DNA from: an uncultured Myxococcaceae bacterium
GTDB taxonomy: Bacteria > Myxococcota_A > UBA9160
Length of the DNA stretch: 64,000 nucleotides
NCBI GenBank assembly: GCA_964505355.1
Contig: CAZDHU010000035.1
Span: 2,002-66,001 of the forward strand
Direction: 5' to 3'
The notes under the pieces are model-generated. The model was not told the origin of the DNA. It saw nothing but the letters and a program-made list of their open reading frames with translations, and did not search any database. Below, piece by piece: positions 1,203 through 18,212 of the stretch (the first letter of the stretch is position 1; the number at the start of each line of letters is the position of its first letter). The position numbers were made by a program, and so were the translations under genes.

Positions 1203-1946
1203 TCACTTCCGCAGTCGTGCGACCCAGCAGCGTGTGGTGTACGGGACGGAGATCTTTCCGGATGGCGGCAGCACGCGCCGAATCGCGTCGACGACGCGGT
1301 CGAACGCCTCACCGGCCTGGCGCTGAAGCGTCGCGTGAGACCGCCACGCGTCGATGTAGTCCTCGACGCGTGTGGGCGCGACCGATCGTGCTTCGACGTG
1401 ATCGACGGCTTCGAAGAGGCCGGAGTCGTCGATCACTGCCGTCTGGTCTTCGCGTCGAACACCGTGTCCATAGTCGGGCACGTGAGCGGTGATCGTCGCC
1501 TCGACTTCCTTCTGCAGCGGATCGTCGAGATCCCGGTGGTTCCACAGGCACCCAAACCAGCCCCGCACGACGGCGATTCGTGCGACCTCGCGCAGCGCGG
1601 CAGCCCGATCGACCACGTTGAACGAGGAGCCGAAAAAGACCATCGCGTAGCCATGGTCCGGAAGACCCGTCTGCTCGCCCGTGCCCTCGCTCCAGCACAC
1701 GTCCGCACCGCGCGTGTTTTCGATCCCGATCGCGCGCATCGCGTCATTCGGCTCGACGGCGTGCACGCGCAGGCCGCGCGCCACGAGCGGACGCGTCAGC
1801 TTCGCGGTTCCCGCACCGATGTCGGCGACCCGATCTCCGCGCGACAGCCCGGCGATTTCGACCAGCCGATCGATCGCGTTCGGCGCGTATTCGGCGCGCC
1901 GGTCGTAGTAGGGCGCGAGTGCGGTGTAGTTCCAGGTCGTCTGCAT
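1203..1946 (-). CDS. Class I SAM-dependent methyltransferase (candidate phosphoramidate O-methyltransferase, Cj1419/Cj1420-like role)
   Basis: 247 aa from ATG 1944-1946 (MQTTWNY...). SAM motif I VADIGAGTAKLT. The longer 641-aa track ORF upstream is Arg/Ala-rich read-through. Last gene of the train containing the phosphoramidate cassette. Confidence 0.85.
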   Translation of the reverse strand: MQTTWNYTALAPYYDRRAEYAPNAIDRLVEIAGLSRGDRVADIGAGTAKLTRPLVARGLRVHAVEPNDAMRAIGIENTRGADVCWSEGTGEQTGLPDHGYAMVFFGSSFNVVDRAAALREVARIAVVRGWFGCLWNHRDLDDPLQKEVEATITAHVPDYGHGVRREDQTAVIDDSGLFEAVDHVEARSVAPTRVEDYIDAWRSHATLQRQAGEAFDRVVDAIRRVLPPSGKISVPYTTRCWVARLRK

Positions 1947-2032
1947 GTCTTCTCCGCTTCGAACTCGTGCGCAGCCTACGCCAGAGAGACCACAGGCGCA
2001 GGTCGTCGTTCCGCCACGTCGTGCTTCATCGC

Positions 2033-3187
2033 TCAGGCAATCGGATTCACCCCCCATCTCGGATGTCGCACCGTTCGCTCGTAGAGCCATTCGATCTCGT
2101 CGGGTTCGAGCAGCATTCGACAGACGGCCGCGAAGAACGAATGCAACGCGGGCACCTCGGCGGACGTTTCGGCCACGGCGTAGGCCCAGTTCTCCGCGAT
2201 TCGATGCTGCCGAACGGGCGTGCACCGCGTGTCGAGCCGGCGTTCGATGCGACCAGACGGCTCCTGCCAGAGCATCGGAGCGCCCGCGGCGTCGTGCGGT
2301 CGCACGAAAACGCGTCGCTGGACGAGCGTCCGCAGGTCGACGATGGGACGTCTCGCGGCGCGCTGGAGCCAGCCGTCGAGGTGACTCTCGTCGGCCTCGT
2401 ATCCCATCCAGCGCAGGAACGCGCGCATCAGCGCTCCGTCGTAGTGGGCGAGTTCGACCGGATCGTTCCGCTCCTTCCACTCGAAAGACCGTCCCCGATG
2501 AATCGCCTGCATCGACCCGCCCGGCATGCGACGGGCGAGCATGTCTCGCGCGCGCTCGGTCGACGAGCTCGCAATCGCCCGGCGGATGCACGCGTCGTCC
2601 CGATGGCGCGAACCGAGGAAGGCGAGAACGCCGGCGAGCGTCTCCTCGGGCCGTTCTTTCAGATCCTCGAAGCGCACGAAGCGGATGGGCCGAACCCGAC
2701 TCGCGTGCAACCAGCGCAGGTGAAACAGCAGATACGTCTTCACGGCATCCAGCCAGAACAGGCCGGGAAAGTGATCCGGCCAGTCCGTGCGCCAGTCGAG
2801 AAACTCGGGCAACTCGCCCGGATACCAGCCGTTCATCTTCCAGCGGCGATGCAAAGAGAAGATCGCGTCTCTCGGGTCTCGCACCACGACGACCACCGGA
2901 CACGCGGGATCGATGTCGAAACGAACGCGATGCTCCCAGAAGAGCTCGATCTCCGGGATGAATCGGTGTCGCTCGCGTTCGAGCAAGATGGGAAGGTGGT
3001 GGACGATGTGTTTCCGAGCCGCCTCGCCGACGCGATACTCCCCGTCGCCGACGTCTTCCCAGTGGTTCTTCTCGTAGAGCAGAGACGTCGTTCGATGCCC
3101 GAGGGCGAGCATCGCGTTGACGAGCCATGCCAGTCCGCAGGCGAACGGAGCCGAGGTCAGAAAGGCCACGCGTCGAACGCGCGTCAT
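2033..3187 (-). CDS. Sulfotransferase-fold protein with divergent 5'-phosphosulfate-binding loop (candidate phosphoramidate transferase)
   Basis: 384 aa from ATG 3185-3187, overlapping the upstream stop as ATGA. 3'-phosphate-binding-like motif VVVVRDPRDAIFSLHRR and the FVRFEDLKERPEETLAGVLAFLG segment are typical of sulfotransferases. The N-terminal P-loop position reads SAPFACGLAWL instead of PKxGTTWL, so the Lys is absent. Confidence 0.75.
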   Translation of the reverse strand: MTRVRRVAFLTSAPFACGLAWLVNAMLALGHRTTSLLYEKNHWEDVGDGEYRVGEAARKHIVHHLPILLERERHRFIPEIELFWEHRVRFDIDPACPVVVVVRDPRDAIFSLHRRWKMNGWYPGELPEFLDWRTDWPDHFPGLFWLDAVKTYLLFHLRWLHASRVRPIRFVRFEDLKERPEETLAGVLAFLGSRHRDDACIRRAIASSSTERARDMLARRMPGGSMQAIHRGRSFEWKERNDPVELAHYDGALMRAFLRWMGYEADESHLDGWLQRAARRPIVDLRTLVQRRVFVRPHDAAGAPMLWQEPSGRIERRLDTRCTPVRQHRIAENWAYAVAETSAEVPALHSFFAAVCRMLLEPDEIEWLYERTVRHPRWGVNPIA

Positions 3188-3906
3188 CGCCAGTGCTCGA
3201 CGTCGCTCTCGCTGTCGAACTCCCACCAGGCTTCGTCGGTGTCGATGGTGTCGATCCGTTCTCCGGCCTCGATCATCGTCTGCAGAAGGCTCGTCACGTC
3301 GATGTCGCGAAAGCGCTCGGACGAGAGGGTCGAGAGCGTCGCTTCGATGCGACTCCACCCGTCCGGCGTGATCGCGAGCAGCCCCATGAACTGCCCCTCG
3401 ATCTCGTGCATGCCCGAAGGGCGGCGACCGATCTCGACCAGCCTGCCCGCGGCGTCGCGGCGAAAGGTCTCCGCGTCGGCGAGGGGATCGGCGAATCGCC
3501 GTTCCCAGATCTCGCGCCAGCGCGTGTTGTTCGCGACGACGATGTCCCCGGGTGCATCGGCCAACCTCAGGATCGTCTTTGCACCGAACAGAATGTCCGA
3601 ATAACACACGATGCCGGGCGCCTCGATCATCCAGGGTCGGGCCTGCCACAGCGAGTAGACCATGTTGGTGGTCTCCCACTGCGCATTGTGAAACGTCCGC
3701 CGGAACGCTGGCCCCTCGAGCAGATCGGCCCGATACCCGGTGACGATCGCGAGCTCGCGGATTCCGCCACCGCGCAGGGCATCGATCGCGGATTCGAGAA
3801 GGGGGCGCCCGTCGACGGACAGCAGACACTTCGGGCGCTCTTCGGTGAGCCCCTTCATGCGGCGCCCTCGACCGGCGGCGAGGATCACGGCGCGCCGGGT
3901 GCTCAC
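3184..3906 (-). CDS. MobA/LicC-like nucleotidyltransferase (Cj1416-like CTP:phosphoglutamine cytidylyltransferase candidate)
   Basis: 240 aa from GTG 3904-3906 (GTGA overlap with the upstream stop). N-terminal AVILAAGRGRRM nucleotide-binding loop. Sits between the amidotransferase and the sulfotransferase-fold gene. Confidence 0.75.
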   Translation of the reverse strand: MSTRRAVILAAGRGRRMKGLTEERPKCLLSVDGRPLLESAIDALRGGGIRELAIVTGYRADLLEGPAFRRTFHNAQWETTNMVYSLWQARPWMIEAPGIVCYSDILFGAKTILRLADAPGDIVVANNTRWREIWERRFADPLADAETFRRDAAGRLVEIGRRPSGMHEIEGQFMGLLAITPDGWSRIEATLSTLSSERFRDIDVTSLLQTMIEAGERIDTIDTDEAWWEFDSESDVEHWR

Positions 3907-4517
3907 GCGATCCCAAAATGGACGCGCAGCATCTCGGTGTCCGCGGAGGTCGGAACACGCTCCCGCTCGGGATGCCACATCACCCCCTGCACCCGCCGGT
4001 CCTTCGCTCTCACCCACTCGACGTGACCTTCGACCGTCCGTCCGAGCACTTCCCACTTCGCGGGTTCTCTTCGAATCGCAAACTGGTGATAACTGTTCAC
4101 TTCGCGCATCGGCCGGCCCGTCTCGTCGAGCAGTGCGTGCCGTGTCTTCACGTGGCCATCCACCCGCTCCAGTTCTCCTCCGAATCGCTCGCACAGGAGC
4201 TGAGCCCCGCGACAGATGCCGAACACCGGGATCGCGCGCTGAAGCGCGTCGTCCAGCAACCGCGCCTCCGTTTCGTCTCGCTCGGATCGATCGCCCCCGA
4301 GCGTGCAGAGATCGTTTCCCCCGCTCAGCAAGAGACCGTCCGGTCGCAACCGGTCGATCGCCCCGAAGTCGAGACTCGGCTGATTCGGAATCAGAATCGG
4401 CGCCGCGCCGATGTCGCACAGCAGCCGCGAGAGCCGCTGATCGAGTGCGTCTCTCACCTCGCCGATGTCGCCGTGCACGTCGACCCGACAGGAGACCAGA
4501 ATCAGCGGTCGCGTCAT
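3903..4517 (-). CDS. Class I glutamine amidotransferase / peptidase C26 family (Cj1417-like gamma-glutamyl-CDP-amidate hydrolase candidate)
   Basis: 204 aa. Nucleophile elbow PVFGICRGAQLL and His-Glu motif GVMWHPE. ATGA overlap with the upstream gene at 4514-4517. Confidence 0.85.
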   Translation of the reverse strand: MTRPLILVSCRVDVHGDIGEVRDALDQRLSRLLCDIGAAPILIPNQPSLDFGAIDRLRPDGLLLSGGNDLCTLGGDRSERDETEARLLDDALQRAIPVFGICRGAQLLCERFGGELERVDGHVKTRHALLDETGRPMREVNSYHQFAIRREPAKWEVLGRTVEGHVEWVRAKDRRVQGVMWHPERERVPTSADTEMLRVHFGIA

Positions 4518-6829
4518 CGAAGAATCTTGACCTGCCGGTTGCAGCCATCGATCGACAATCGCCGGGCACGAGACCAGGCCCCGTAGTTCGTCTCGCCCGC
4601 ACCGACCACGGCCGGCAGTTTCATCTCGGCTGCTCGGATGGCCATGTGCGAGTTGACGCCGCCGTACATCGTGACGAATCCCGCGATCCGTCGGGTGAAG
4701 ATCCAGTCGAAACCGGGATCTGCGTTCTCGATGAACACGATTTTCCCCCGCAGGTCGTCGCGCTCCGAATCGAGCACGGCGACGTCGGCCTCGACCGAGC
4801 CGAGGGTGACGAAGTTCGGCTCGGTTTCCAGAACGTGGAAGGTCCAGACGTCTTCCGGCGATACGATCAGGCTCGGAAGAACGAGTGCCCGGGTGACTTC
4901 GTGCGCCCGGCGTCCCTGTTCGATCGAACGCGCCATCGCAGCGGCCGGACTCTCGCAGGAACCGAACAACCTCTGGACGGCCCGAACGTCGAGGTGGCTG
5001 GAATCGTCGAGATCGAATCCGTGTTCTCGGCCGAGTCGCCCGATCTCGACCAGCGCGTCGCTGACGTTCCGCGTGAACAGGAATTTCGCGTACTCACGCC
5101 CTTCGATCGCACACTTCAGGAACTCGAACAGTCCGAGCACGTCGAGATCGAGCCGATGTGCGCGCAGCTCCGTCTGGATCGTCGTGTACTGCTCGATCGA
5201 GAGACGGAACGGGGTCGCCGCCGGAATCGGACTCTTTCGTTCCCAGTCGAAGTATCGATCGGGGTCCTCGTCGTACCGGGGAGACAGGATGTCGTAGGTG
5301 CCCGGCCGAAGATGTCCGTAGACGGCGAGAAATGCCTCGCGAGGAAGTCTCGCGTGATCCCGCGCCATCCGCGTACTCACGGTGTCGAGCGACCCCATGA
5401 ACTCGGCGCACTCGCGATCGGTGAGAATTCCGGACGACACCATCGACTTCAACATCTGAACGGCGATGAATCCGGCGCGGGCGAGTCCTGCGAACGGGAG
5501 CGTCCCGTACCGCTTGCAATCTTCGAGCAGCCAGTAGATGCGCTCGATTCGATTCATCGAACTCGACGCCAGCGCCCGATGCCGCTCTTCGAGAATCGAG
5601 AGCCGTTCGAGATCCTTCTTCCAGAGTCCGGTCTCCGGCGCGACGATGCGGACCGTCAAGGCACGGAGGCTCTCGACGATCCGCGTGATTTCGTCCGAGG
5701 TGAACCCGAATCCGCGCAGCCGTTCGATCTCTTTTTCGAGCTCGAAGTGATGACAGGAGAAAGCGATCTCGAACTCGACCTTGTCGTGGAGCTGTGGCGA
5801 GCTCGCCAGCCGGTCGAGGTAGTGCTCGACGAGTTTGTTCGCGAGCGCTTCGGGGACGTCGGCGGGAACGAACGAATTGAAATCGACGCGCACGTCGACG
5901 TACGGGCATCCGTGAAGGCTTTGGATCAGCGGCTGGCTTCGCAGATTTCGGTAGCCGTAGTTGTCGCGCTGGTACGCCCAGGTGCTGTCCGTGACGAGTT
6001 CCGTGTACAGCGAGAGCGCGAGCGGGCGAGGGCGCACGCCGACGATCTCCGCCGGATTCCAGTCGGGCATGATGCCGAAGAGGGTTCGAGATCCGAGCAG
6101 GAAGGGTTTCGGCTCCATCCATTGCGTGACCTTGTCGTGAATCTCGACGAGGCGCGCCCGCAGGGCCTCGGTTTCGACGCGACACTCCCGAGCGAGTACA
6201 AGCGGACGCACCTGCAGCAAATGAAGTCGATGGGCATCGTCGATGGCGAACTCGACGTCGAGCCGGTCGGAGCCAAACCGGGCTTCCAGCTCGTCGAGCA
6301 GCGCGTGAAGTTCGGGAAATTCCGCGCGCGCGTGCGACGGCGGCGACGAAAACGAGATCGCGGTCCTCGTCGCGCGACCGAGCCCCGAAGTCACGCCGTC
6401 GGTCGCGCCCGAATCGTCGTAGTTGATCACGCGGTAGGGCGATCCCGTGGAGGGATCGCGCGTGAAGGCCACCCCCGAACGAATCACGCGCCGGACCATC
6501 GGCTGCACGAAAAGGTGTTCGTCGTCGTCGAGCGGGTCGTACCGTTCGAAGACGGCATCGATCGCCGTTCGCAATCGATTCGCGTCCTGCACGTTCGGAA
6601 TCGAGAGGTATCGCCCGGCAAGAGAGCGCTCGATGCCATCCTCTCCGCTCGCACTGCTCCGGACGATCAGCGGTTCGGCGAATCCGAGCGTTCGTTCGAC
6701 GCGCCGGAGACACGATTCGGGATCACGCCGCCACTCGCCGAACGAAAGCAGACAGGAGGCGGGGATCACCGCGTGTTGCAGCGTTTCGCGAAGCGATTCG
6801 AGCGTCGTCGCCTTCGTTCCCGGCTTCAT
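4514..6829 (-). CDS. PEP-utilising-enzyme family kinase: ATP-grasp/PPDK_N domain plus phosphohistidine swivel domain (Cj1418-like L-glutamine kinase candidate)
   Basis: 771 aa from ATG 6827-6829 (ATGA overlap). N-terminal PPDK_N-type motif IVRSSASGEDG..SLAGRY. C-terminal mobile-domain motif GGVNSHMAIRAAEMKLPAVVG. No PEP/pyruvate TIM-barrel domain recognisable. Confidence 0.85.
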   Translation of the reverse strand: MKPGTKATTLESLRETLQHAVIPASCLLSFGEWRRDPESCLRRVERTLGFAEPLIVRSSASGEDGIERSLAGRYLSIPNVQDANRLRTAIDAVFERYDPLDDDEHLFVQPMVRRVIRSGVAFTRDPSTGSPYRVINYDDSGATDGVTSGLGRATRTAISFSSPPSHARAEFPELHALLDELEARFGSDRLDVEFAIDDAHRLHLLQVRPLVLARECRVETEALRARLVEIHDKVTQWMEPKPFLLGSRTLFGIMPDWNPAEIVGVRPRPLALSLYTELVTDSTWAYQRDNYGYRNLRSQPLIQSLHGCPYVDVRVDFNSFVPADVPEALANKLVEHYLDRLASSPQLHDKVEFEIAFSCHHFELEKEIERLRGFGFTSDEITRIVESLRALTVRIVAPETGLWKKDLERLSILEERHRALASSSMNRIERIYWLLEDCKRYGTLPFAGLARAGFIAVQMLKSMVSSGILTDRECAEFMGSLDTVSTRMARDHARLPREAFLAVYGHLRPGTYDILSPRYDEDPDRYFDWERKSPIPAATPFRLSIEQYTTIQTELRAHRLDLDVLGLFEFLKCAIEGREYAKFLFTRNVSDALVEIGRLGREHGFDLDDSSHLDVRAVQRLFGSCESPAAAMARSIEQGRRAHEVTRALVLPSLIVSPEDVWTFHVLETEPNFVTLGSVEADVAVLDSERDDLRGKIVFIENADPGFDWIFTRRIAGFVTMYGGVNSHMAIRAAEMKLPAVVGAGETNYGAWSRARRLSIDGCNRQVKILR

Positions 6830-7365
6830 GCGATCGCTCCGAGCAGCGTTCCCCGAATCGTCGCCATCGCCTGCTCCCGCATGCCGGCGATCGGCAACCC
6901 GGATTCGCCGAGGTCGAACACGAGATCGGGATGCGCCGGCTCTTCCGGCTCCAGATCCACGCCGACCACCGGACCCGTACCCGGCTTCGCAGCGTAGAGG
7001 TCGTGCTGGTTCCGGGCTCGCAGCAGGGCGTTCGGAGCCCGCAGGTAGATCTCGAGATAGCGCGGAACGCGTCTGCGATTTCGTTCTCGAACGGACTCGA
7101 ACATCGAGACCGTACAGCAAATCACGTTCACGCCCTGGTCGGTGAGCAGCGTGCAAAGGCGCGAGTAGAACTGCGCGCAGCGGAGTCGTCCGTCACGGTC
7201 GTATCCAAAGACGCCACCGGCGACTTCGCGCAGCTCGTCGCCGTCGAGCAAGACGGCGGGCGTACCGGAGGCCACGAGCGAATCACGCAGACTTCGTCCC
7301 AGCGTCGTCTTTCCGGAACCCGCGAGTCCGGTGACCCAGACCAGAAATCCTTCTCTCGCCTCCAT
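6826..7365 (-). CDS. Adenylylsulfate-kinase-fold kinase (Cj1415-like cytidine diphosphoramidate 3'-kinase candidate)
   Basis: 179 aa from ATG 7363-7365. The track start at 7401 is a TTG. P-loop VTGLAGSGKTTLG and LLDGDELR as in APS kinases. No ATP sulfurylase gene nearby. Confidence 0.8.
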   Translation of the reverse strand: MEAREGFLVWVTGLAGSGKTTLGRSLRDSLVASGTPAVLLDGDELREVAGGVFGYDRDGRLRCAQFYSRLCTLLTDQGVNVICCTVSMFESVRERNRRRVPRYLEIYLRAPNALLRARNQHDLYAAKPGTGPVVGVDLEPEEPAHPDLVFDLGESGLPIAGMREQAMATIRGTLLGAIA

Positions 7366-7397: not shown

Positions 7398-9017
7398 TCA
7401 AGCGCCCCCCGCGCTCTCCAGCCCGGCGAGCTCGACGGCATCCGCCGCTGCAGGCTTCGGCCCCGTCTCGCCGGCGAGTTCGGATTTCGGTGGTGAATCG
7501 CGCTCGGCCGGCGGTGCGTTCGGCGTGACGCCCTCCGTGTCAGGCGTTTCGATCGCCTGTCCCTCGTCCCGGGCGGCGAGATCGACCAGCCGCTCGCGAA
7601 GCGACGACTCCGTCTCTCCGGTCAAGACCAGTGCGCCGAGCGCGTGATCTCCGATTCGATCGAAACGCAGATCGATGGGGCCCGTCTCGTGATGCACGGC
7701 GAACCATCGTTCGTCACCGCCACGAAGCCAGCGATGGAGATGGTCGGGAACTCGCGTGGTCCGGCGCAGCAGGTTGTAGCGCCCGACCACGTCGACGAGG
7801 TCGATTCGGGTCTCCATCCGCCACGGCTTCGCGATCGTCGATGCAACGTGCTCGAGCCTCTGCTCTTCGCGCTGCTCGCGATCGGCCCGGGTTCGACGAC
7901 GCCCGAGCCCGCGCAGCCACCCCCTCCGCGCCCCGGCCGCCAGCGAAGCGTCGAGTTCGAAGCGCGTCTTCGCGGAAGCCGCGGCGCGGTCGTCGCGAAT
8001 CACGCGCGCGACGAGGCTGCGCGAGATCGGACCGCGCACGGCGTGGAGACCTCCATCGAAGGCCCAGATTTCGTATCCATCCTTCCGCGCCTCGATCCGG
8101 CGCGGTTCGGCGGCGTCACCGGCTGCGAGCGTCGGCCCCCAGGACGCCGGCACCGAACGCCCGCGCTCGCGACGCAGCCACGAGTCGAACGCGCGCGCGC
8201 GCGCCGACAGAAACTCCCGAAGCCAGCGTTCGAAATCGGCTGGACAGCGGACGGAGTCCCCGACGAAGGCGGGTTCATCGAGACGAAGCAGGGCGGTATC
8301 GACGTCCGTGCGCACGCCGAGGAAGGAGAACACGCCGTCGATGGCGCTTCGCGGATCGGTCTCGACGTCTTCCAGAAAACCGACGTGAATCTGCGAAGAA
8401 TGAAACACCGACGAGAGCCGTTCGAGCAGTCCGAGCGGGTCGACGGCCGTGAGCATCACGTCCGAGAGCGCGGCCGCGCAGAGCGCGCGTTCCTCGAGAT
8501 TTCCAATCGAACAGTCGGCATCCGCAAAGGGAGCTTCGCGCCAGCGACAGGCATGACGAATCAGCGACCACATGTGGTCGACGGGCTCGCGCAACCAGAC
8601 GATCCAACGAACGTCCGGTCGGAGTTCTCGGATGGTGCGCAACGCGGTGCGAGGAAGTCCGGCATTCGGCGTCGCATCGCCGCGACACGTCGAACTCACT
8701 CCCGCGAAGTGATCGAGATACCGGTCGACGCCGTGTTCGCGCCAGCCCGTGTCGAAGTAGTGCAGTTCTTTTTCTCGAGGCAGATGGACGTCCGGATGAC
8801 GGCGCAGAACGTCGGCCAGCCAGGTGGTGCCGGTCTTACCGGGAGACGCGAAGAGAAATTCGGGAAATAACGATTCGCGTCCACGCGGGATCCGTCCGAT
8901 CCGTTGCGCGTATCGAGCCCAGAGCCAGTGCTCGTTCGGGTACAGGGGCTCGGGCTCGCCTCGAGTCGAGGACGTCCCGGGATCGGCATCGTCGTATTCG
9001 GACGCCCCGCGCTTCAT
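7398..9017 (-). CDS. Canonical sulfotransferase domain fused to a ~250-aa C-terminal domain of unknown function
   Basis: 539 aa from ATG 9015-9017 (MKRGASEY...). 5'-PSB loop SPGKTGTTWL and 3'-PB motif WLREPVDHMWSL. The C-terminal half carries two copies of a Y-(N/E)-hydrophobic ... aromatic-aromatic-(A/G)-(V/L) module that also occurs in the adjacent radical SAM protein. Confidence 0.8.
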   Translation of the reverse strand: MKRGASEYDDADPGTSSTRGEPEPLYPNEHWLWARYAQRIGRIPRGRESLFPEFLFASPGKTGTTWLADVLRRHPDVHLPREKELHYFDTGWREHGVDRYLDHFAGVSSTCRGDATPNAGLPRTALRTIRELRPDVRWIVWLREPVDHMWSLIRHACRWREAPFADADCSIGNLEERALCAAALSDVMLTAVDPLGLLERLSSVFHSSQIHVGFLEDVETDPRSAIDGVFSFLGVRTDVDTALLRLDEPAFVGDSVRCPADFERWLREFLSARARAFDSWLRRERGRSVPASWGPTLAAGDAAEPRRIEARKDGYEIWAFDGGLHAVRGPISRSLVARVIRDDRAAASAKTRFELDASLAAGARRGWLRGLGRRRTRADREQREEQRLEHVASTIAKPWRMETRIDLVDVVGRYNLLRRTTRVPDHLHRWLRGGDERWFAVHHETGPIDLRFDRIGDHALGALVLTGETESSLRERLVDLAARDEGQAIETPDTEGVTPNAPPAERDSPPKSELAGETGPKPAAADAVELAGLESAGGA

Positions 9018-9028
9018 CCCTGCACGCG

Positions 9029-12000
9029 TCAGGCGACGGGCAAAGACTTCGACTGTGACGCGAGAAGCTCGCGAATCTCTCCTTCGACGACGTCTCGCGA
9101 GACGTCTCGCACGACGCCCGGCATCTCCATCACGTCGACGGTCTGCAAGTCGAGGGAGCCGAGTGACTGCGGAAGCCCGTAGAACCAGCCCTCGAACTCG
9201 ACCACGTTGTAGTCGCCCACCGCGCAAACGAGACGCGGCGCCGACGAGCGACCGGACGCGCCCGCCGACTCGCTCGCGAGCCGATCGCGTCCTTTCGCGC
9301 GCTCGCCGCGAAGCCTCGAATAGACGCCCGCGGCGAGCCGGCGGATCTGACGCCGCACACCGTCCGCCGCGGACCCCGTCTCCTCGCCGGATTCGATCCG
9401 TTCGACGATCTCTCGCATCGCGCGCGCGGTCAGCACGCCCGGCAACGCGTCGACCGGCTCTTCGCCCCAGCGAACCGCGCCGCACGCATGAGGCACGCCG
9501 TAGTAGACACCGTCGTACTTCACGATGTTGTACGAACCCATGGTCCGCAGGAGCTCGGGGTTCGCGCCGCGGGTCACGACGGACACGAGCTCGAGCCGGC
9601 CTTCGAGATCCACGCTCGATGCTTCGGTCAGGCCGAGTGACGCGACCTCCGCGCCGAGCACGCTCGCGAGCGCATCGCGATCGATCACGAAGCGTTCATC
9701 GCCGAGACGAATCACACCGACGCGCGGCGCGGTGCGACCCGGCTCTTGCTCCGGCCACGCGCTGTCGGCGCGAAACTGCCCGGCACCCGCGAGCGCCGAG
9801 TCCACGCCGGCCGGGCCATCCGATTCGTACTCCCCCATCGGATTGAGCGTCGGCTGGCTGACCGGTGCCGCATCCCGCCCGTTCGTGTCTCCCCGCACGT
9901 CGACACCACCCTCGAGCGACGGTCCTTCGCACGCCGAGGCGGCGACCGCGTTCCGATCGAGGCCGGACGCGTCGGACTCGTGTTCCGGCACCGCCGGGTG
10001 GGTTCCGCGCGGACGTCCCTGCTCGTCGAAATTGGGGTCGTTCTGCTCGGACATGCCGGAGCGGCTCGGATCTTTCGCCGTCTCCACGACGTCGATGATC
10101 TTCGATGCCCAGGCGCCGACGTCGAAGCCGTTGTCACGCAACGCGTGGACGATCCGGGCAAAGCGCCGCTTGCGAACGTCGACGTCGATGAACGGGTTCT
10201 CGCTGTGCCAGAGATTCGCGGGCATCGCGCGAGGAAACCGTTCGTAGAGCGCTTCTCTGGGTTCGTGGAACACGATTCCGTGCTTCTCGGGCTCCAGCCA
10301 GTAGACGCTCCCATTCACCATGATCAGCGGGTTGATGTTCGCGAGACGCCCGATCCACGGTTTGCAGCGCACGATCAGATCGATCGATTCGTCGACGTCG
10401 GTCTCGGTCTCGCCGGGAACCCCGATCACCCAGTTCACTTCCGTGTAGATGCCGGCCTGCCAGCAATCGCGCAGATTCTGCTCCACGTCTTCGGTCGTGT
10501 ACCCCTTCTTTTGCATGCGAAGCGTATTCGCACTGAACGCGTCGACGCCGAATCGAAGCGCGACGAAACCCGCCTCGCGCAACTTCCGAAAGAACGCGGC
10601 ATCGCTCTTCTTGTGAATCCGAAGCTGCCCCGTCAGTCGTACGTTCAGTCCGCGACGAATGATTTCGTCACAGATCTCCAGCACCACCTCCGGCATCCCG
10701 TTCAGGTCGCTCTCGTTGAACATGAAGAGATGACAGCCCTGGGACGTCAGCCATTCCAGCTCGTCCACGAACACGCTCGGCGAGTGGATCCGCCAGAGAA
10801 AACGCTCCGCGCAGAACGTGCAGCGCGACCAGCGACAACCGCGGCTCGCGAGCACCGGTGTCAGCTGGTATCCGTCGAAGTTTCGATACAGATCGAGGTC
10901 GAACCACTCGTACCTGGGAAACTCGAGCAGGTCGAGGTTGTGCGGCATGGGCCCCGGCACGAACGTCCAGTCGGGGTCGTCGAAGCGCGACAGGACACCG
11001 GGTTGATTCTTCGGCCGCTCGCCGCGGGCGAGCGCTTCGATCAGCGGCCCCACGGTGAGATCGGCTTCCGAGATGCACATGAAGTCGGCTTCGGGGAACG
11101 CGCGCCGACCGACGCTCGCGTGGTAACAGCTGAATCCGCCGACGACGATGACGGTGTCGGGCAGGCGCGCCTTCACCCCGTTCACGACTTCTCGCGAGAA
11201 TCTCTCGCTGCACTCCTGAATCGAAAGTCCGAGCACCTTCGGAGCCGCGCGCACGATTTCGTCGACGATCTCGTCGATCTCCGGACGGAACCATTCGATC
11301 ACCGCGGGATCTGCCCACGTGTCGTAGTGTTCGGCCTTCCACGGATCGACGGGCAGTTCTCGACCGTTCGGGAGCACGGTCCGTCCGCCCTGGTCGAAGA
11401 GGCGACGGACGTGGAATCGGTGATAGATCACGGTGTCGAGGTCGAAGGTCTGCCAGCTGACGCCGGTCTTCTTCAACGCGTTGTGCACGTACCCGATGCC
11501 GTTCGGCATCAGGCCGAGGTTTCGCGCCGGGCAGTCGATCAGCAGCAGGTCGAGGCCGGGACGAAACTCGATCGGCGGAATCTCGATCGGATAAATGATC
11601 TCACGCGACCACGGCGTCCACGCGTGTGCGGGAATCGATTCGAGCGAAATTTCAGGCAGCACTTCGGGATCGATCACGCGCAGGCGCGGTTCCAGGCGGG
11701 CGCGCATGCGCCAGCGAGCGAGTGTCCGCGTCTCGGCGAGGAACACCGTCTGCACCTCGTCCGGCAGGCGGGCGGGAGGAATCTCGGCGAGGGCCGCGAG
11801 GGCGGGTACCGGGCCGTCGGCACCGGCATCGACGATCCGCCAGCGAACGTGGCGAACGAGGTCCGGAGTTTCTCGAACCAGCGCGGCGAGAAACTCCGCG
11901 TTTCCCCACAGCGCGAGCCCCGGCACCTGCAGGAGATGTTCGCCGAGTCGCCGCAGCGGTTCGCGTTCGGCGGGATCCCCGGCAAGACGCAGGCACTGGT

Positions 12001-12085
12001 GAGGACTGAATCGCACCAGCGTACCGTCGACGGAAAACGGCCGACCCCGGTGACGGAGTGTCAGCGTGCTCGGACGTCGTTCCAT
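9029..12085 (-). CDS. B12-binding-domain radical SAM protein with N- and C-terminal extensions
   Basis: 1018 aa from ATG 12083-12085, preceded by GGGAGC SD. GTG at 12109 is an alternative start. The cluster motif is GCRWSRCTFC (CX4CX2C), verified on the nucleotide sequence at 10811-10837. A B12-binding-like Rossmann region lies upstream, and a ~330-aa C-terminal tail carries two YN(I/V)V..(Y/F).G.(Y/F)YG(V/L)P repeats. Confidence 0.85.
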   Translation of the reverse strand: MERRPSTLTLRHRGRPFSVDGTLVRFSPHQCLRLAGDPAEREPLRRLGEHLLQVPGLALWGNAEFLAALVRETPDLVRHVRWRIVDAGADGPVPALAALAEIPPARLPDEVQTVFLAETRTLARWRMRARLEPRLRVIDPEVLPEISLESIPAHAWTPWSREIIYPIEIPPIEFRPGLDLLLIDCPARNLGLMPNGIGYVHNALKKTGVSWQTFDLDTVIYHRFHVRRLFDQGGRTVLPNGRELPVDPWKAEHYDTWADPAVIEWFRPEIDEIVDEIVRAAPKVLGLSIQECSERFSREVVNGVKARLPDTVIVVGGFSCYHASVGRRAFPEADFMCISEADLTVGPLIEALARGERPKNQPGVLSRFDDPDWTFVPGPMPHNLDLLEFPRYEWFDLDLYRNFDGYQLTPVLASRGCRWSRCTFCAERFLWRIHSPSVFVDELEWLTSQGCHLFMFNESDLNGMPEVVLEICDEIIRRGLNVRLTGQLRIHKKSDAAFFRKLREAGFVALRFGVDAFSANTLRMQKKGYTTEDVEQNLRDCWQAGIYTEVNWVIGVPGETETDVDESIDLIVRCKPWIGRLANINPLIMVNGSVYWLEPEKHGIVFHEPREALYERFPRAMPANLWHSENPFIDVDVRKRRFARIVHALRDNGFDVGAWASKIIDVVETAKDPSRSGMSEQNDPNFDEQGRPRGTHPAVPEHESDASGLDRNAVAASACEGPSLEGGVDVRGDTNGRDAAPVSQPTLNPMGEYESDGPAGVDSALAGAGQFRADSAWPEQEPGRTAPRVGVIRLGDERFVIDRDALASVLGAEVASLGLTEASSVDLEGRLELVSVVTRGANPELLRTMGSYNIVKYDGVYYGVPHACGAVRWGEEPVDALPGVLTARAMREIVERIESGEETGSAADGVRRQIRRLAAGVYSRLRGERAKGRDRLASESAGASGRSSAPRLVCAVGDYNVVEFEGWFYGLPQSLGSLDLQTVDVMEMPGVVRDVSRDVVEGEIRELLASQSKSLPVA

Positions 12086-12136
12086 GTCCGGGCTCCCTTC
12101 CCGACGCACGCGACGCAGGACGTCGGGCGCGCGTCT

Positions 12137-12589
12137 CTAGAGTGCGACGTCGACCAGAGCAGATCCCCGCAACGCATCGACGCCGTCGAGAATCTCGTGA
12201 ACCTGCCAGCTCGCTGCACGATCGGACTTCGCTGCGATCTCGGCTGCGATCGCCGTTTCTCCAAAGGCCGGGATCACGATCACCGGCTTCCCGTGCTTGC
12301 GAGCCAGTTCGAACTCGAGCTCGAGCCACTTCCGCGAACTCGCCTGCGCCCACACGCTGGCGAGCGCGATCACCGCATGAACCGGAACGATCTGCGCTTC
12401 GAGCCATCGTCGCACGAACGTTCCTCCGTCCGCGCTGTTCGCACTCACCGCCGGGTCGTGCCAGGGCACACTGAAGTTCCGCCACTGCAGACCGGGCTCC
12501 GCATCGAACAGCGCGACGAGCCGATTCCAGTCGTCGTGATAGCGCCATGCATGCGTGATGAAGAGGTCGTATCGCGGTCGCGCCGTCAC
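12137..12589 (-). CDS. TIR-like domain protein (DUF1863/MTH538-type, ThsB-like fold)
   Basis: 150 aa from GTG 12587-12589 with a strong GGAGG SD 5-6 nt upstream. N-terminal YDLFITHAW, then SRKWLELEFELARKHGKPVIVI, a typical TIR-like layout. Embedded between the YfhO-like and radical SAM genes with 34- and 51-nt gaps. Confidence 0.75.
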   Translation of the reverse strand: MTARPRYDLFITHAWRYHDDWNRLVALFDAEPGLQWRNFSVPWHDPAVSANSADGGTFVRRWLEAQIVPVHAVIALASVWAQASSRKWLELEFELARKHGKPVIVIPAFGETAIAAEIAAKSDRAASWQVHEILDGVDALRGSALVDVAL

Positions 12590-12623
12590 GGTCTCCTCCC
12601 TCGACTGGACGTCCGGGCGCAGT

Positions 12624-15320
12624 TCACACTAGCTCACGCGACTTCGCCTGGCGTCGCCGCGAATCGACGAATGCGAACGCCCCGAGCGCCGCACAGGTGG
12701 CCAGCAGTCCGGCTCCCGACAGGCGCTTGCCTCGCGCCAGCGCCGGCGGCGAATACCACAGCTCGAGTCGTCGGGCTCCGGCCGGAATCCCGATCGCCAT
12801 GAATGCGAAATCGGCCCGCATCACCGCTTGCTCCGCACCGTCGACCGACGCGTGCCACCCCGGGTCGAACACGTCACCGAAGAACACGATCGTCGGAGCG
12901 ACGCCGCCGACGGGAATCACGATCCGGTCGCTCGTGAGCTCGTCGAAGGCGAGATCGATCGCTCGGCCGCTCGTCGCAGCGACACCGCCCGGGGGGTCTC
13001 GATCGAGAACGAGCCGGCGCAATGGATCGAAGTCCAAATCCGTCAGCCTCCGGAGCGCGTCTTCGTCCCCGGGAATCACTTCGAAGTCCGAGCAGGCGAC
13101 GAATCGGGAGAGCGCGCCCGGGCGGCGCTGAACCTGCCCGCGCGAGACTCCCTCGAACCCCGCGCCGAGCAGATCGAGCAGGCGCGGATCGTTCACCTCG
13201 GGCGTCATCGCGCCCGGGCCGAAGGGTGGATTCGGCTCGAACGCGGACACGAGTCGCGACAGGCGTTCGCCTCGGAGCGAGTTCACGCCACCCATCGAGC
13301 GGATCCCGTGAACCGTGAAGACGTTTCCCTGAAACTCTTCGGCGGCGATCCCGAGCGCGACGTGGGGTCGGTTGACGCGCCATCGTGCGAGATCGGAGGC
13401 GGACAGGTCGAAGGTCGCCGTCTCTCCGCGAGAGCGATCGATCTTACCGGGACGCCAGAACGGTTCGGTGATCACGTGCTGATACTCGCGGTTCGCCGGC
13501 GCGAGGTCGGCGAACAGCACGAGCCCGAGCGTCACGACGAACGCTTCGGAGCCGATTCTCCCCGTACGCAGGGCGCCGAGCGCGGGCACCAGAACCGCCG
13601 TGACGAGCAGCAGCCGGCCGACTCCGAGCAGCGCCAGCAGCGCCGCATTCGGCAGCGTCGGATGCGCCCCTTCCGGTAAGGGGATCACCATCACCACCAT
13701 CACCAGCCCGAGCGCCAGCCAGCGGAGCCTCCCTGCGATCCGCTCTCTTCCGGACGAAGCGTCGAGCAGAGATCGCCAGAGCAGAAGGATCGCAGCGATG
13801 CTCGTCTGGATCAGCACGAACGAGCAAACGAAGAGATCGTCTCTCCAGCCGGCGAACCATGCGACGATCCCGACCACGACGGCGTCGATGCCCACGGCGC
13901 ACCAGACCGCGAGCGGACGCCCGAGCAGCGAACTCACCGACGACGGACGCACGAAGACCAGCGCCGCCGCCGCGAGCGCGAGCAGCACGACGCATGCGAC
14001 GGGATGGATCGCCTCGGGCCTCAGATAGAACCACGGAACGGCGCTCGCACCGGCAGCGAGCAGCGCGCATGCCGCGAGAACGCGCACGGGGTCTCCGAAG
14101 GCGCCGGGCTCGTCGATCGCCGTCCGGAGCGCGGACGCGAACGCTCCCAGCAGCGCCACCGGAACCAGAAGACGCGGAATGATCGCATGGATGTAGGGAA
14201 AGAAGAGCGTCCAGATCAAATCGGCAAACGGGCGCACGGACAGAAACCAGACCGTCGCCGCGACGAAGAACGCAGGCCAGAACGGACGCATCCCGCGGCG
14301 CCGGCGCGCGAGTGCGAGCAGGACGAGCAGCATCGTCGCCGCCCCGGCGTACGGATGGCCGTCGATCTGATGATGCTGCACGGGTTCCCACCAGACGTAG
14401 TGCTGCAACAACCGCTTTGCGGTCTCGATCTGAATGCCGAGCGCCTCGGGAACCAGCGCTGTGACGCCGTACAACGGATCGTTCATGTGGCCGCCGAACG
14501 CGTGGTGAAACGAATCGGTGAAAACGCGATCTCCGCCGTGCAGCGCACCCGCGATCGGAAGCAGCCGAATCATCGCGACCAGCAGAGCGCAGACGAACGC
14601 GGTCCCGGCGATCCACGCCAGTGCGTTCCGGGGCCAGCGTCCGAGCTCGGCAGGGTTCAGTCGGTAGACGACGAGAATCCCGAGGGCGAGCAGGATTCCC
14701 GCGCCGTACACCACGTTCCCGGTCGTCAGTACGATCAGAATCGAACACCAGACGGCGAGAAACGTTCGCCAGAGGGCGCGGCGATCGATCGTCCAGATCG
14801 CGGCCAGCGCGCCGTAGAGCGCCACGTGGAGCGTCAGACACGCGTAGGTGGTGACCGCGAAGAACGCGTTGGTCCCGATCTGGGCGGTCAGCGCCGCGAG
14901 AAGTGCGACCGGGCGACTGCCGAACTCTTCGCGAAGAAACGCCCATGCGAATCGTCCGAGAAGCCACGTTTCGATCGCCACGCGGAGATGAAAGCCCCAC
15001 TTGAACCAGCCGCGCGGCAACAGGAAGAGCGGCCAGGATGCAGGCGAGTAGAGAAAATTGTGGGTGCTCCCGGAGAAATCGATTCCGCCGAGAAGCTGCG
15101 GATTCCACAGCCCCCATCCTCCGCGACGAAGCTCGGCGGCCGTGAACAGGTGATTGGGAAAGATCGCGAACCAGTTGTCGGTGCTCCCGACCAGCGCTTT
15201 TCCCTGAAGCAGCGGCGGGAGGTAGATCAGGCACGCCGTCGCGAGGAAGAACCACGTCGCGCTGCGATCGGGTCGCGCGAGCAGGCGCTCGCGAAGCCGG
15301 GAAGTGACGCCGGCCGTCAC
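12624..15320 (-). CDS. Large polytopic membrane protein, YfhO/GT-C-like glycosyltransferase
   Basis: 898 aa from GTG 15318-15320 (GTGA overlap with the gmhB stop). More than 12 predicted hydrophobic helices followed by a ~230-aa soluble C-terminal domain and a final TM segment. The N-terminal region resembles the YfhO family. The family call is by eye only. Confidence 0.65.
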   Translation of the reverse strand: MTAGVTSRLRERLLARPDRSATWFFLATACLIYLPPLLQGKALVGSTDNWFAIFPNHLFTAAELRRGGWGLWNPQLLGGIDFSGSTHNFLYSPASWPLFLLPRGWFKWGFHLRVAIETWLLGRFAWAFLREEFGSRPVALLAALTAQIGTNAFFAVTTYACLTLHVALYGALAAIWTIDRRALWRTFLAVWCSILIVLTTGNVVYGAGILLALGILVVYRLNPAELGRWPRNALAWIAGTAFVCALLVAMIRLLPIAGALHGGDRVFTDSFHHAFGGHMNDPLYGVTALVPEALGIQIETAKRLLQHYVWWEPVQHHQIDGHPYAGAATMLLVLLALARRRRGMRPFWPAFFVAATVWFLSVRPFADLIWTLFFPYIHAIIPRLLVPVALLGAFASALRTAIDEPGAFGDPVRVLAACALLAAGASAVPWFYLRPEAIHPVACVVLLALAAAALVFVRPSSVSSLLGRPLAVWCAVGIDAVVVGIVAWFAGWRDDLFVCSFVLIQTSIAAILLLWRSLLDASSGRERIAGRLRWLALGLVMVVMVIPLPEGAHPTLPNAALLALLGVGRLLLVTAVLVPALGALRTGRIGSEAFVVTLGLVLFADLAPANREYQHVITEPFWRPGKIDRSRGETATFDLSASDLARWRVNRPHVALGIAAEEFQGNVFTVHGIRSMGGVNSLRGERLSRLVSAFEPNPPFGPGAMTPEVNDPRLLDLLGAGFEGVSRGQVQRRPGALSRFVACSDFEVIPGDEDALRRLTDLDFDPLRRLVLDRDPPGGVAATSGRAIDLAFDELTSDRIVIPVGGVAPTIVFFGDVFDPGWHASVDGAEQAVMRADFAFMAIGIPAGARRLELWYSPPALARGKRLSGAGLLATCAALGAFAFVDSRRRQAKSRELV

Positions 15321-15925
15321 CGGAGCGCGGCCTCGGTGTCGACGATGGTCCGAACGGCATCGGCCAGATCGCGTGCCCGGAGCGTCGGCCGATGGGTCTC
15401 CGATCGTTCCGCCGGATGATCGGGGTCGACGAGGATCGTCCGGGTACCGGCGCGCGTTCCACATTCGACGTCGGTCGCGCGGTCACCGATCATCCAGCAG
15501 TACGAGAGTTCCAGTCCGAGATCGAGGGCCGCTCGGCACAGGAAATGGGGAGACGGCTTGCGACACTCGCAGACGCCACTCCACTCCGGCACGACCCCGT
15601 TCGGATGATGAAAGCAGTAGAAGCTCGCATCGAGTCCGATGCCCGCGGTCCCGAGTTCGTGCTCCAGTCGCTCGTGCACCGCCCGCAGCGACGCGAGCGA
15701 CGTCTTCCCCTTCGCGTGGCTCGGCTGGTTCGAGACGACGACGAGCTTCCAACCGTCACGCCGAAGCGCTGCGAGCGCCTCCTTCACCCCATCGTGGAGC
15801 ACGAGATCTCCGGGCTCGCGCGGCGATTCCCATTCGCGCGACGAGGCGTACCAGACGTTACGGTTCAGCACCCCGTCCCGATCGAGAAACACCGCGCGAC
15901 GTCGACTCAACGCACGGATTCCCAT
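15317..15925 (-). CDS. gmhB: D-glycero-D-manno-heptose 1,7-bisphosphate phosphatase (HAD-IIIA)
   Basis: 202 aa. HAD motif I FLDRDGVLN, motif II VVVSNQ, CxHxxxxxCxCRKP zinc-binding loop (CFHHP...CECRKP), and GDRATD. Confidence 0.85.
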   Translation of the reverse strand: MGIRALSRRRAVFLDRDGVLNRNVWYASSREWESPREPGDLVLHDGVKEALAALRRDGWKLVVVSNQPSHAKGKTSLASLRAVHERLEHELGTAGIGLDASFYCFHHPNGVVPEWSGVCECRKPSPHFLCRAALDLGLELSYCWMIGDRATDVECGTRAGTRTILVDPDHPAERSETHRPTLRARDLADAVRTIVDTEAALR

Positions 15926-17235: not shown

Positions 17236-18212
17236 TGGACGACCGTGGTCGTGCCTTCGAAGTCGAAGTGGAATCGTACTTCCGGCAACCCGAGGGCCGC
17301 CATCGCACGCCGCAGATGCAGCTTGTCTTCGGTGTAGAACATCAGAAACCCGCCGCCGCCGGCGCCGATCAACTTTCCACCGACGGCACCGTTGTCGCGC
17401 GCGACCTCGTACCAGTGGTCGATCTGCGGATTCGACATCCCGCCCGAACGGCGCTTCTTGTGTTCCCAGTGTTCGTGCATCAGCGTGCCGAACTCGTGCA
17501 GTGCTCCCGCTTCGAGCGCGTCTCGACTGCGCAGACCGAGGTCCTTCACGTAGTGGAGGTTGTCGATCATTTCGGGATCGAGCATCCGGGTCCGATCGTC
17601 CTGTTCCTTCAGGATCTCCGACGCCGATCGCGAGTACCCGGTGAAGAAAAGGACGAGCCCGTCCTCGAGATTGGCGCGAACCTCGGTCGACACCCGCAGA
17701 GGCCAGGCTTCGACGCGATCATCGGTGCCGAACTGAAAGCACGTGATGCCGCCGTACGCGGCGATGTACTGATCCTGTTTGCCGATCGGCTCGCGAAGTC
17801 GGTCGAGTTCGATGAAGCAGGCCTGCTCGGCCAGCTCTCTCGGATGAACGAGATTTCTACGCAACGTGTGCAGGGCCTTCAAGACGCCGGTCGTGAAGCT
17901 GCCCGACGAGCCGAGGCCGGTGCCGGACGGGATGTCGGCCATGCTCGTCAGCTCGAGCGACTCGCCCCCGACGCCGACCAGTTCGAACGCCTCGCGCAGA
18001 ATCGGATGCTCGAGATCGCGCGCATGCGCGACGCGCTCGAGCTTCGAATACTTGACGATCAGTTCGGGCACGAAGGTCTGATGCACCGTGATGTAGACGT
18101 ACTTGTCGATCGCGGCCGCCACCAGAAATCCGTCGTGGTCGCGGTAGTAGGACGGAAGATCGGTCCCTCCGCCGCCGAGCGTGATGCGCAGCGGACTGCG
18201 GACGATGATCAT
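17232..18212 (-). CDS. hddA: GHMP-family D-glycero-alpha-D-manno-heptose 7-phosphate kinase
   Basis: 326 aa. RSPLRITLGGGGTD N-terminus, GHMP motif II PSGTGLGSSGSF, and C-terminal KLIGAGGGGF. ATGA overlap at 18209-18212. Confidence 0.85.
   Translation of the reverse strand: MIIVRSPLRITLGGGGTDLPSYYRDHDGFLVAAAIDKYVYITVHQTFVPELIVKYSKLERVAHARDLEHPILREAFELVGVGGESLELTSMADIPSGTGLGSSGSFTTGVLKALHTLRRNLVHPRELAEQACFIELDRLREPIGKQDQYIAAYGGITCFQFGTDDRVEAWPLRVSTEVRANLEDGLVLFFTGYSRSASEILKEQDDRTRMLDPEMIDNLHYVKDLGLRSRDALEAGALHEFGTLMHEHWEHKKRRSGGMSNPQIDHWYEVARDNGAVGGKLIGAGGGGFLMFYTEDKLHLRRAMAALGLPEVRFHFDFEGTTTVVQ

Follow-up and report, generated by a model that had tools for sequence, protein, structure and literature searches.

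The donor for the O-methyl phosphoramidate (MeOPN) modification of Campylobacter is made by phosphorylation of the amide of glutamine, cytidylylation, release of glutamate and 3'-phosphorylation (PMC11800397, PMC6429109). The literature treats MeOPN as a Campylobacter trait: the modification is described as identified in Campylobacter only (PMC6429109), a 2022 review terms the glutamine kinase 'C. jejuni-specific' (PMC9561416), and the sole mention that we found in the literature outside this genus is in a Borg preprint. Sugar-linked phosphoramidates nevertheless exist in diderm envelope glycans of other bacteria: PMC3907429 (citing Silipo 2005 and Vinogradov 2008) reports phosphoramide groups, unmethylated as described there, in the lipopolysaccharide (LPS) core of Xanthomonas campestris and Shewanella sp. 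MR-4. Here we analysed a 64-kb window, that is, the whole stretch of 64,000 nucleotides from contig CAZDHU010000035.1 of an uncultured Myxococcaceae bacterium, in which the minus-strand genes running from position 7365 down to 1203 probably encode a Campylobacter-type phosphoramidate donor pathway together with enzymes using the donor.

The C. jejuni reference genes (L084, GCA_010278785.1) lie in the order transferase, Cj1419, Cj1418, Cj1417, Cj1416, Cj1415, kpsC and kpsS. They were reached through a published cj1420 primer (PMC3907429): as a DNA search pattern on metagenome contigs, it recovered the Campylobacter-type contigs L002 and L003; the L002 transferase matches a C. jejuni DUF2972 protein at 100% identity, and this match led to L084. 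All five soluble enzymes of the C. jejuni MeOPN genes have homologues in the window, with 29-43% identity and conserved catalytic residues. In BLASTP comparisons, the kinase (6826-7365; 179 amino acids (aa), Pfam APS_kinase), a candidate cytidine diphosphoramidate 3'-kinase, shares 41% identity with Cj1415 over 147 aa (E 9e-39), and the nucleotidyltransferase (3184-3906; 240 aa, GTG start, NTP_transf_3), a candidate CTP:phosphoglutamine cytidylyltransferase, shares 31% identity with Cj1416 over its full length of 248 aa (E 1e-51). GlnK (4514-6829; 771 aa, PPDK_N and PEP-utilizers mobile domain), by homology an L-glutamine kinase orthologous to Cj1418, is 41% identical to that protein over the full length of 780 aa (E 0). 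The hydrolase (3903-4517; 204 aa, class I amidotransferase fold, Peptidase_C26/GATase), a candidate gamma-glutamyl-CDP-amidate hydrolase, shows 29% identity to Cj1417 over 147 aa (E 1e-21) and 28% to the homologue on contig L003 over 186 aa (E 1e-26). Finally, the S-adenosylmethionine (SAM)-dependent methyltransferase (1203-1946; 247 aa, Methyltransf_11) shares 43% identity with Cj1419 over 250 aa (E 2e-72) and 29% with a Cj1420 homologue. The original prediction had given exactly these coordinates for the four core genes, all of which lie on the minus strand; their Pfam families agree with its description, and its assignment of each to its Cj1415-Cj1418 counterpart, like that of the methyltransferase to a Cj1419/1420-like role, is borne out by these comparisons.

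Curated NCBIfam models and conserved residues point the same way, the best models of the window GlnK, kinase and hydrolase being those matched by C. jejuni Cj1418, Cj1415 and Cj1417. GlnK scores 918.7 bits over the full length of NF004508 (cut-off 501; Cj1418, 1171 bits), and the kinase 141.7 bits with NF004041 (cut-off 127; Cj1415, 292 bits). GlnK has no phosphoenolpyruvate (PEP)/pyruvate-binding domain by Pfam, and its middle region of 400 residues is specific to the NF004508 family. In the swivel domain, His728 within NSHMAIRA aligns with His737 of C. jejuni Cj1418, the residue reported as phosphorylated. The hydrolase retains the Cys102, His182 and Glu184 triad, with GICRG and WHPERE conserved, and the nucleotidyltransferase and Cj1416 have the ILAAGxGxR and PKC motifs in common. 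Both the P-loop of the kinase (GLAGSGKT, 13-20) and its LDGDELRE motif (40-47) are conserved relative to Cj1415, and its TVSMF (85-89), which is TISMF in C. jejuni, sits where the adenosine 5'-phosphosulfate (APS) kinases of the PDB have ISP or VSP.

The four core genes are clustered and co-directional, and each overlaps the next by its start and stop codons (ATGA for kinase/GlnK, ATGA for GlnK/hydrolase and GTGA for hydrolase/nucleotidyltransferase), so that the translational coupling proposed for them is literal. Because of this homology, the conserved residues and the conserved gene context described below, the reading of the four genes and the methyltransferase as homologues of Cj1415-Cj1418 and Cj1419 is supported, and with it the predicted pathway.

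A scan of GTDB species by two exact peptide motifs gave at least 594 confirmed loci, and the related loci discussed here are the best 80 of them. GlnK occurs in at least 594 GTDB species from many phyla; the best GTDB species match to the window GlnK, among the matches listed, is 57% identical. Relatives with E <= 1e-10 numbered 6,682 among the candidates scored, and the best 120 of these are all at least 49% identical with near-full coverage. The Joint Genome Institute (JGI) already labels several of these 120 homologues 'glutamine kinase', and 41 of the 120 have an APS_kinase domain in addition. HMMER, run exhaustively against 1.84 billion representatives, returned 1,551 GlnK clusters (50% identity) at E <= 1e-30, many of them with an N-terminal extension of 200-280 aa; in the fused proteins, the GlnK part follows this extension. 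The best 80 loci come from Acidobacteriota, from Alpha-, Beta- and Gammaproteobacteria (Azospirillum, Pseudomonas, Marinobacter, Chitinibacter, Jannaschia and Yoonia), from Gemmatimonadales, Planctomycetota, Bacillota (Cohnella, Butyrivibrio and Lachnospiraceae), Sericytochromatia, Obscuribacterales, Eremiobacterota, Verrucomicrobiales, Solirubrobacteraceae and Nannocystaceae, and from others.

The module travels whole. With the window proteins as tblastn queries, the kinase was found in 75 of the 80 related loci, the hydrolase in 72, the nucleotidyltransferase in 75 and the Cj1419/1420-type methyltransferase in 69, with the companion genes tightly packed around GlnK. Cassette kinases of about 66 of 75 related loci carry T[IV]S[LM]F at the position of TVSMF. 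In two close relatives, L086 (8725-10014) and L087 (1604-2896), the hydrolase and the nucleotidyltransferase are fused into a single protein of about 430 aa, and these fusions, together with the frequent ones of kinase and GlnK, are Rosetta-stone evidence of four activities acting together. For the hydrolase, this fusion and its place among the cassette genes support the predicted role.

Cultured bacteria have the cassette too: it is plasmid-borne in Azospirillum, Vibrio alfacsensis, Cupriavidus taiwanensis and Agrobacterium vitis, where RefSeq labels its products 'PEP-utilizing enzyme', 'gamma-glutamyl-GABA hydrolase family', 'phosphocholine cytidylyltransferase family' and 'adenylyl-sulfate kinase'. 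Cohnella boryungensis and a Pseudomonas species are further cultured carriers. One such complete cassette in a cultured strain lies on plasmid AZO_p6 of Azospirillum lipoferum 4B (L091, 27861-37327); all names there are generic, so the pathway has gone unrecognised in RefSeq. The 'adenylyl-sulfate kinase' of this plasmid has 846 aa, so it carries extra domains, and a 'sulfotransferase domain-containing protein' is encoded two genes downstream of the cassette. The original prediction had regarded an intact cassette outside Campylobacter as notable in itself, and this expectation of rarity is not supported: as a module, the cassette is shared widely among bacteria from the environment, plants and the gut, and it is not a peculiarity of Campylobacter.

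The resulting scheme has six steps, of which the first four follow from homology to characterised C. jejuni enzymes and the last two from gene context and fold. GlnK would use ATP to phosphorylate L-glutamine on its amide nitrogen via His728, and the nucleotidyltransferase would join the resulting L-glutamine phosphate to CTP to give CDP-L-glutamine. The hydrolase, acting through Cys102, His182 and Glu184, would then free glutamate to leave cytidine diphosphoramidate, the 3'-hydroxyl of which the APS-kinase-fold kinase would phosphorylate. The product, 3'-phospho-cytidine 5'-diphosphoramidate, would be a structural analogue of 3'-phosphoadenosine 5'-phosphosulfate (PAPS). In the fifth step, one or possibly both of two sulfotransferase-fold proteins encoded beside the core genes (ST_B, possibly also ST_A) would move the phosphoramidate onto a hydroxyl group of a sugar and release cytidine 3',5'-bisphosphate, which in related loci would be removed by the products of CysQ-like genes. 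The acceptor would be a sugar in the heptose-containing polysaccharide of this locus, predicted to be exported by an ABC transporter. Finally, the Cj1419-type methyltransferase would O-methylate the transferred group to give MeOPN; the near-universal linkage of Cj1419/1420-type genes to the cassette is the reason for counting this enzyme as part of the pathway.

As in C. jejuni, the window genes are clustered and co-directional, and the polysaccharide locus around them makes a GDP-heptose-type sugar as well. Their order is kinase, GlnK, hydrolase, nucleotidyltransferase, whereas in C. jejuni it is GlnK, hydrolase, nucleotidyltransferase, kinase; the window has one methyltransferase in place of Cj1419 and Cj1420, a Wzm/Wzt-type ABC-2 transporter (41059-42587) in place of the kps system and, unlike C. 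jejuni, an attached B12-binding radical SAM enzyme. The Campylobacter transferases belong to another sequence family (DUF8374 plus DUF2972), and tblastn with two C. jejuni transferases found no match in the window at E <= 1e-3; among the related loci, a DUF2972 transferase was found in none of the 80 (tblastn, E <= 1e-5). Instead, two sulfotransferase-fold genes bracket the window cassette. The locus thus combines a known donor pathway and methyltransferase with features that are new: the gene order, the absence of a Campylobacter-type transferase and the sulfotransferase-fold partners.

The first of these partners, ST_B (2033-3187, minus strand; 384 aa, Pfam Sulfotransfer_1), has its ATG at 3187 overlapping the stop codon of the nucleotidyltransferase gene (ATGA). 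The original prediction omitted it, since it is hidden by a false frame: the open reading frame (ORF) at 1203-3128 (minus strand, 641 aa) is a high-G+C artefact, and the real genes are the methyltransferase at 1203-1946 and, in another frame, ST_B at 2033-3187, the identical 384-aa product of which is called in the NCBI record. A methyltransferase gene does end the run, as had been predicted, with ST_B intervening between it and the nucleotidyltransferase. The AlphaFold2 (AF2) model of ST_B reaches a mean confidence (pLDDT) of 83 and a pTM of 0.86, and its top 50 PDB matches are all PAPS-dependent sulfotransferases (LGS1, Teg12/14, StaL and SULTs among them; E 1e-7 to 5e-5), by which the fold is confidently predicted to be that of a sulfotransferase. 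The ST_B family comprises 15 proteins among 5.8 billion. In all of them the 3'-phosphate-binding motif RDPRDAxxSxxxR is invariant, and in ST_B the 5'-phosphosulfate-binding loop (5'-PSB) is degenerate, with SAPFACG replacing the lysine-bearing loop of sulfotransferases and no Lys present.

Wherever the contig is long enough for a judgement, the ST_B homologue lies within the cassette. In L085 the genes run kinase, GlnK, hydrolase, Inositol_P, nucleotidyltransferase, sulfotransferase, a gene of no assigned family, sulfotransferase, methyltransferase and ST_B homologue; in L086, kinase, GlnK, hydrolase-nucleotidyltransferase fusion, ST_B homologue, methyltransferase and B12-binding radical SAM gene; and in L087, GlnK, hydrolase-nucleotidyltransferase fusion, ST_B homologue, methyltransferase and Inositol_P. 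The Inositol_P genes of L085 (4450-5244) and L087 (4854-5654), which lie in or next to the cassettes of these relatives and have no counterpart in the window, encode CysQ-like 3'-phosphatases, and their presence fits the release of a 3',5'-bisphosphate nucleotide such as cytidine 3',5'-bisphosphate. Beside the homologue P0261 of ST_B, on the unrelated metagenome contig L089, there is a small TIR-like gene (3231-3689) resembling one at 12137-12589 of the window.

The second partner, ST_A (7398-9017, minus strand; 539 aa, Sulfotransfer_1/3), which the original prediction had left without comment, consists of an N-terminal carbohydrate-sulfotransferase-like domain and an unassigned C-terminal half. 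Its motifs are canonical (PGKTGTT, 59-65; REPxDxxxS, 143-151), and its sequence matches in the PDB are 3rnl, the NDST1 sulfotransferase domain and 3-OST. With ST_A as the seed, iterative hidden Markov model (HMM) searches brought up no relatives from the best 80 loci, and ST_A itself was reached marginally (E 9e-4) from a Sulfotransfer_3 seed.

Sulfotransferase-fold genes recur around the cassette elsewhere. Among 82 immediate co-directional neighbours in the best 80 loci, the commonest Pfam families are Sulfotransfer_3 (11) and Sulfotransfer_1 (8), followed by Inositol_P (4), while Sulfotransfer_3 occurs in 6 of 144 more distant neighbours. One example of a Sulfotransfer_3-type neighbour is AZOLI_RS29210 of Azospirillum lipoferum 4B. 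By iterative HMM searches, about 28 of the 80 loci have sulfotransferase-fold ORFs within 10 kb, mostly adjacent to the cassette. Taken with the fold, this gene context makes ST_B our main candidate for the phosphoramidate transferase and suggests sulfotransferase-fold proteins as the likely transferases in this variant of the pathway; ST_A may be either a second transferase or a genuine sulfotransferase.

A distant link to the Campylobacter enzymes may exist at the level of structure. The AF2 model of the C. jejuni transferase has useful confidence at residues 210-612, and its top 13 PDB matches are sulfotransferases only, although these matches are weak (E 0.036-0.9, probability 0.99-0.5, TM about 0.4). 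The DUF2972-type family conserves GxSGxxAL and LVRDP with sulfotransferase-like spacing. No similarity of ST_A or ST_B to a Cj1421-type protein was found by BLASTP. The kinase, sulfotransferase-fold and methyltransferase genes also occur together apart from the glutamine kinase: L090 (6931-13150) has a Cj1415-like kinase (35% identity), a Cj1419-type methyltransferase (49%) and two sulfotransferase-like genes, and this trio adjoins a PEP mutase-cytidylyltransferase and a phosphonopyruvate decarboxylase, without a glutamine kinase. In the Campylobacter-type contig L003 (5729-8256), phosphonate genes as in L090 directly follow Cj1416. The trio may therefore be a general module that also serves phosphonate donors. 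Extending the scheme beyond the window, we tentatively suggest, at somewhat less than even confidence, that outside Campylobacter the last enzyme is a sulfotransferase-fold protein that transfers phosphoramidate, not sulfate, from 3'-phospho-cytidine 5'-diphosphoramidate to a sugar, with a CysQ-like phosphatase clearing cytidine 3',5'-bisphosphate and a Cj1419-type enzyme methylating the product. If this is true, Cj1421 and Cj1422 would be very divergent members of the same fold.

The main rival explanation, which we regard as unlikely, is a sulfation module, in which an APS kinase would make PAPS, ST_A and ST_B would sulfate the polysaccharide, and GlnK, the hydrolase and the nucleotidyltransferase would serve an unrelated neighbouring function. 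The likeness to a PAPS system is considerable: the kinase has the APS-kinase fold and Pfam family, the predicted donor is a 3'-phosphorylated nucleotide, both transferase candidates fall in Sulfotransfer_1/3 and carry the 3'-phosphate-binding RxPxDxxxS, ST_A has canonical motifs and matches carbohydrate sulfotransferases of the PDB, the model of ST_B matches PAPS sulfotransferases only, and the relatives carry a CysQ-like phosphatase. The kinase itself, however, is closer to Cj1415 than to the APS kinases of solved structure (best E 5e-19), and it passes NF004041 but fails the apsK model TIGR00455 (83.6 bits, cut-off 138.7), with TVSMF for the ISP motif. It is also tied to the glutamine kinase, by the ATGA overlap in the window and by the APS_kinase domains on GlnK homologues noted above, and ST_B is without the conserved 5'-PSB lysine. 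No ATP-sulfurylase, CysD or CysN family was found by Pfam in the 48 called genes of the 64-kb window, nor any ATP-sulfurylase-type family among those that recur (two or more occurrences) in the 226 neighbours from the related loci, so that, within these neighbours, an association of the four genes with cysDN was not seen. The absence of cysDN had been put forward earlier as an argument against a PAPS route; the absence stands, while the argument as first made overlooked ST_A and ST_B, which flank the cassette.

A second alternative keeps the donor pathway as proposed and assigns the transfer to some unrecognised protein, such as ST_A in its C-terminal half, the YfhO-like membrane protein (12624-15320) or a product encoded beyond the window, or else leaves the group unmethylated or places it on a non-glycan acceptor. 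The Campylobacter transferases do come from a different sequence family, sulfotransferase-fold genes go undetected near many related cassettes, and the phosphoramidate of Xanthomonas and Shewanella LPS is unmethylated in the account cited above. We nevertheless judge this alternative quite improbable. ST_B is coupled to the nucleotidyltransferase, its slot is kept in L085, L086 and L087, sulfotransferases are the most frequent neighbour families, and the matches of the C. jejuni transferase model, weak as they are, are all to sulfotransferases.

The weakest alternative, that the genes are generic look-alikes of the PEP synthase/rifampin-phosphotransferase, PuuD hydrolase and LicC/GlmU nucleotidyltransferase types, can be given hardly any credence and is refuted at the homology level: generic RefSeq names of the Azospirillum homologues ('PEP-utilizing enzyme', 'gamma-glutamyl-gamma-aminobutyrate hydrolase family protein', 'phosphocholine cytidylyltransferase family protein') and PDB matches to rifampin-phosphotransferase-type chains, PuuD and LicC speak for it, but those matches are partial and weak (the swivel domain only of Listeria 5fbs, E 5e-5; PuuD, E 9e-7; LicC, the best PDB relative of the nucleotidyltransferase, residues 5-91 only), the rifampin-phosphotransferase and PpsA models give 30-51 bits against cut-offs of 600-1000, and Cj1418 and Cj1416 are each matched over the full length. 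GlnK does share the ATP-grasp and phosphohistidine swivel with PEP synthase and rifampin phosphotransferase and differs from them in having neither the PEP/pyruvate nor the rifampin-binding domain. The best homologues of the four proteins are therefore not rifampin phosphotransferase/PpsA, PuuD, GlmU or true CysC, the matches of these kinds being partial and weak. A sequence search found no Cj1415-Cj1418 chain in the copy of the PDB used.

Several observations weigh against the phosphoramidate pathway as we propose it, or against parts of it. The hydrolase lies far under the curated equivalog cut-off of NF045546 (95.6 against 250 bits; C. jejuni Cj1417, 328 bits), no curated model exists for Cj1416, and the specificity for glutamine and CTP is predicted from sequences with 29-41% identity. 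For the transfer step, the role given to ST_A and ST_B is an argument from guilt by association and fold; ST_A, with fully canonical PAPS-binding motifs, could be a true sulfotransferase acting on PAPS made elsewhere in the genome; no sulfotransferase-fold gene was detected within 10 kb in about 52 of the 80 related loci; and a profile-profile comparison of the ST_B family with the Cj1421/1422 family was not significant, with the RDP segment alone aligned (E 0.11). The role in methylation is unproven even in C. jejuni, because knock-outs of Cj1419 and Cj1420 left the capsule visibly unchanged (PMC11800397); redundancy of Cj1419 and Cj1420 could explain why single knock-outs had no phenotype.

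The cassette closes a long polysaccharide operon. G+C across the window is 63-72%, which is the source of many false ORFs, and genes were called by codon-position G+C; by this calling, an almost unbroken minus-strand operon runs from about 44.3 kb down to 1.2 kb. At its end, the order of transcription is B12-binding radical SAM gene, ST_A, kinase, GlnK, hydrolase, nucleotidyltransferase, ST_B and methyltransferase, with spacers of 11 nt between the radical SAM gene and ST_A, 32 nt between the ST_A stop and the kinase start, and 87 nt between ST_B and the methyltransferase. A partial plus-strand gene (2-970) encoding a protein with FG-GAP repeat, dockerin-type and TcdB-middle-like features converges on the operon end. 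G+C dips to 0.63 at 4-6 kb, against about 0.67; horizontal transfer was considered for this dip and set aside, as the cassette G+C at third codon positions (GC3, 0.77-0.85) resembles that of its neighbours.

The polysaccharide genes of the operon include heptose genes, giant family 2 glycosyltransferases (GT2) and Wzm/Wzt. As the original prediction had noted, heptose genes are part of the locus, and they lie in two places: a HAD phosphatase, an HddC-GmhA fusion and an HddA-like GHMP kinase at 15317-18212 (minus strand, by Pfam), which may supply the acceptor sugar, and, at the upstream end of the operon, a second HddC-like nucleotidyltransferase with an HddA-like GHMP kinase (42584-44343, minus strand), adjoining the transporter genes. 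Their identity to C. jejuni HddA, GmhA2 and HddC is 23-29%. Inside the glycan operon there are also a split pair of E1-dehydrogenase/transketolase-like thiamine pyrophosphate (TPP) enzymes (35634-37642, minus strand) and a gene of the transaldolase/fructose-6-phosphate aldolase (FSA) family (24681-25391, minus strand), which may make an unusual keto-sugar or supply sedoheptulose-7-phosphate; in L086 a transaldolase-family gene stands beside the heptose genes as well. The host is a diderm, as BamD (47020-47715) is present.

The B12-binding radical SAM protein (9029-12016, minus strand; 995 aa, Pfam Radical_SAM and B12-binding), which may be a methylase, is 49% identical over 681 aa to the one encoded next to the L086 cassette (11950-14571, after the methyltransferase gene), and is thus a partner of the cassette that is conserved in this lineage. 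A second B12-binding radical SAM gene lies at 26314-27861. Between the first of these genes and that for the YfhO-like protein lies a gene for a ThsB_TIR-like (PF08937) protein of 150 aa (12137-12589, minus strand), the one to which the L089 gene was compared. A short motif of the form YN(I/V)V..G..(Y/W)(F/W)A(V/L)P...GPIDL recurs towards the C-termini of ST_A (around 410-455), the radical SAM protein (around 933-948), P0259 and P0261; it may mark a small domain common to ST_A, the radical SAM protein and some members of the ST_B family.

For the window alone, the analysis gives an operon for polysaccharide decoration a sound functional annotation. Beyond it, the recurrent and translationally coupled sulfotransferase-fold partner is a concrete and testable candidate for the transfer step and, if its proposed role is true, the known chemistry of the sulfotransferase fold would be extended. 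Since the cassette is so widespread, surface glycans decorated through P-N bonds may be far commoner than the known structures suggest.

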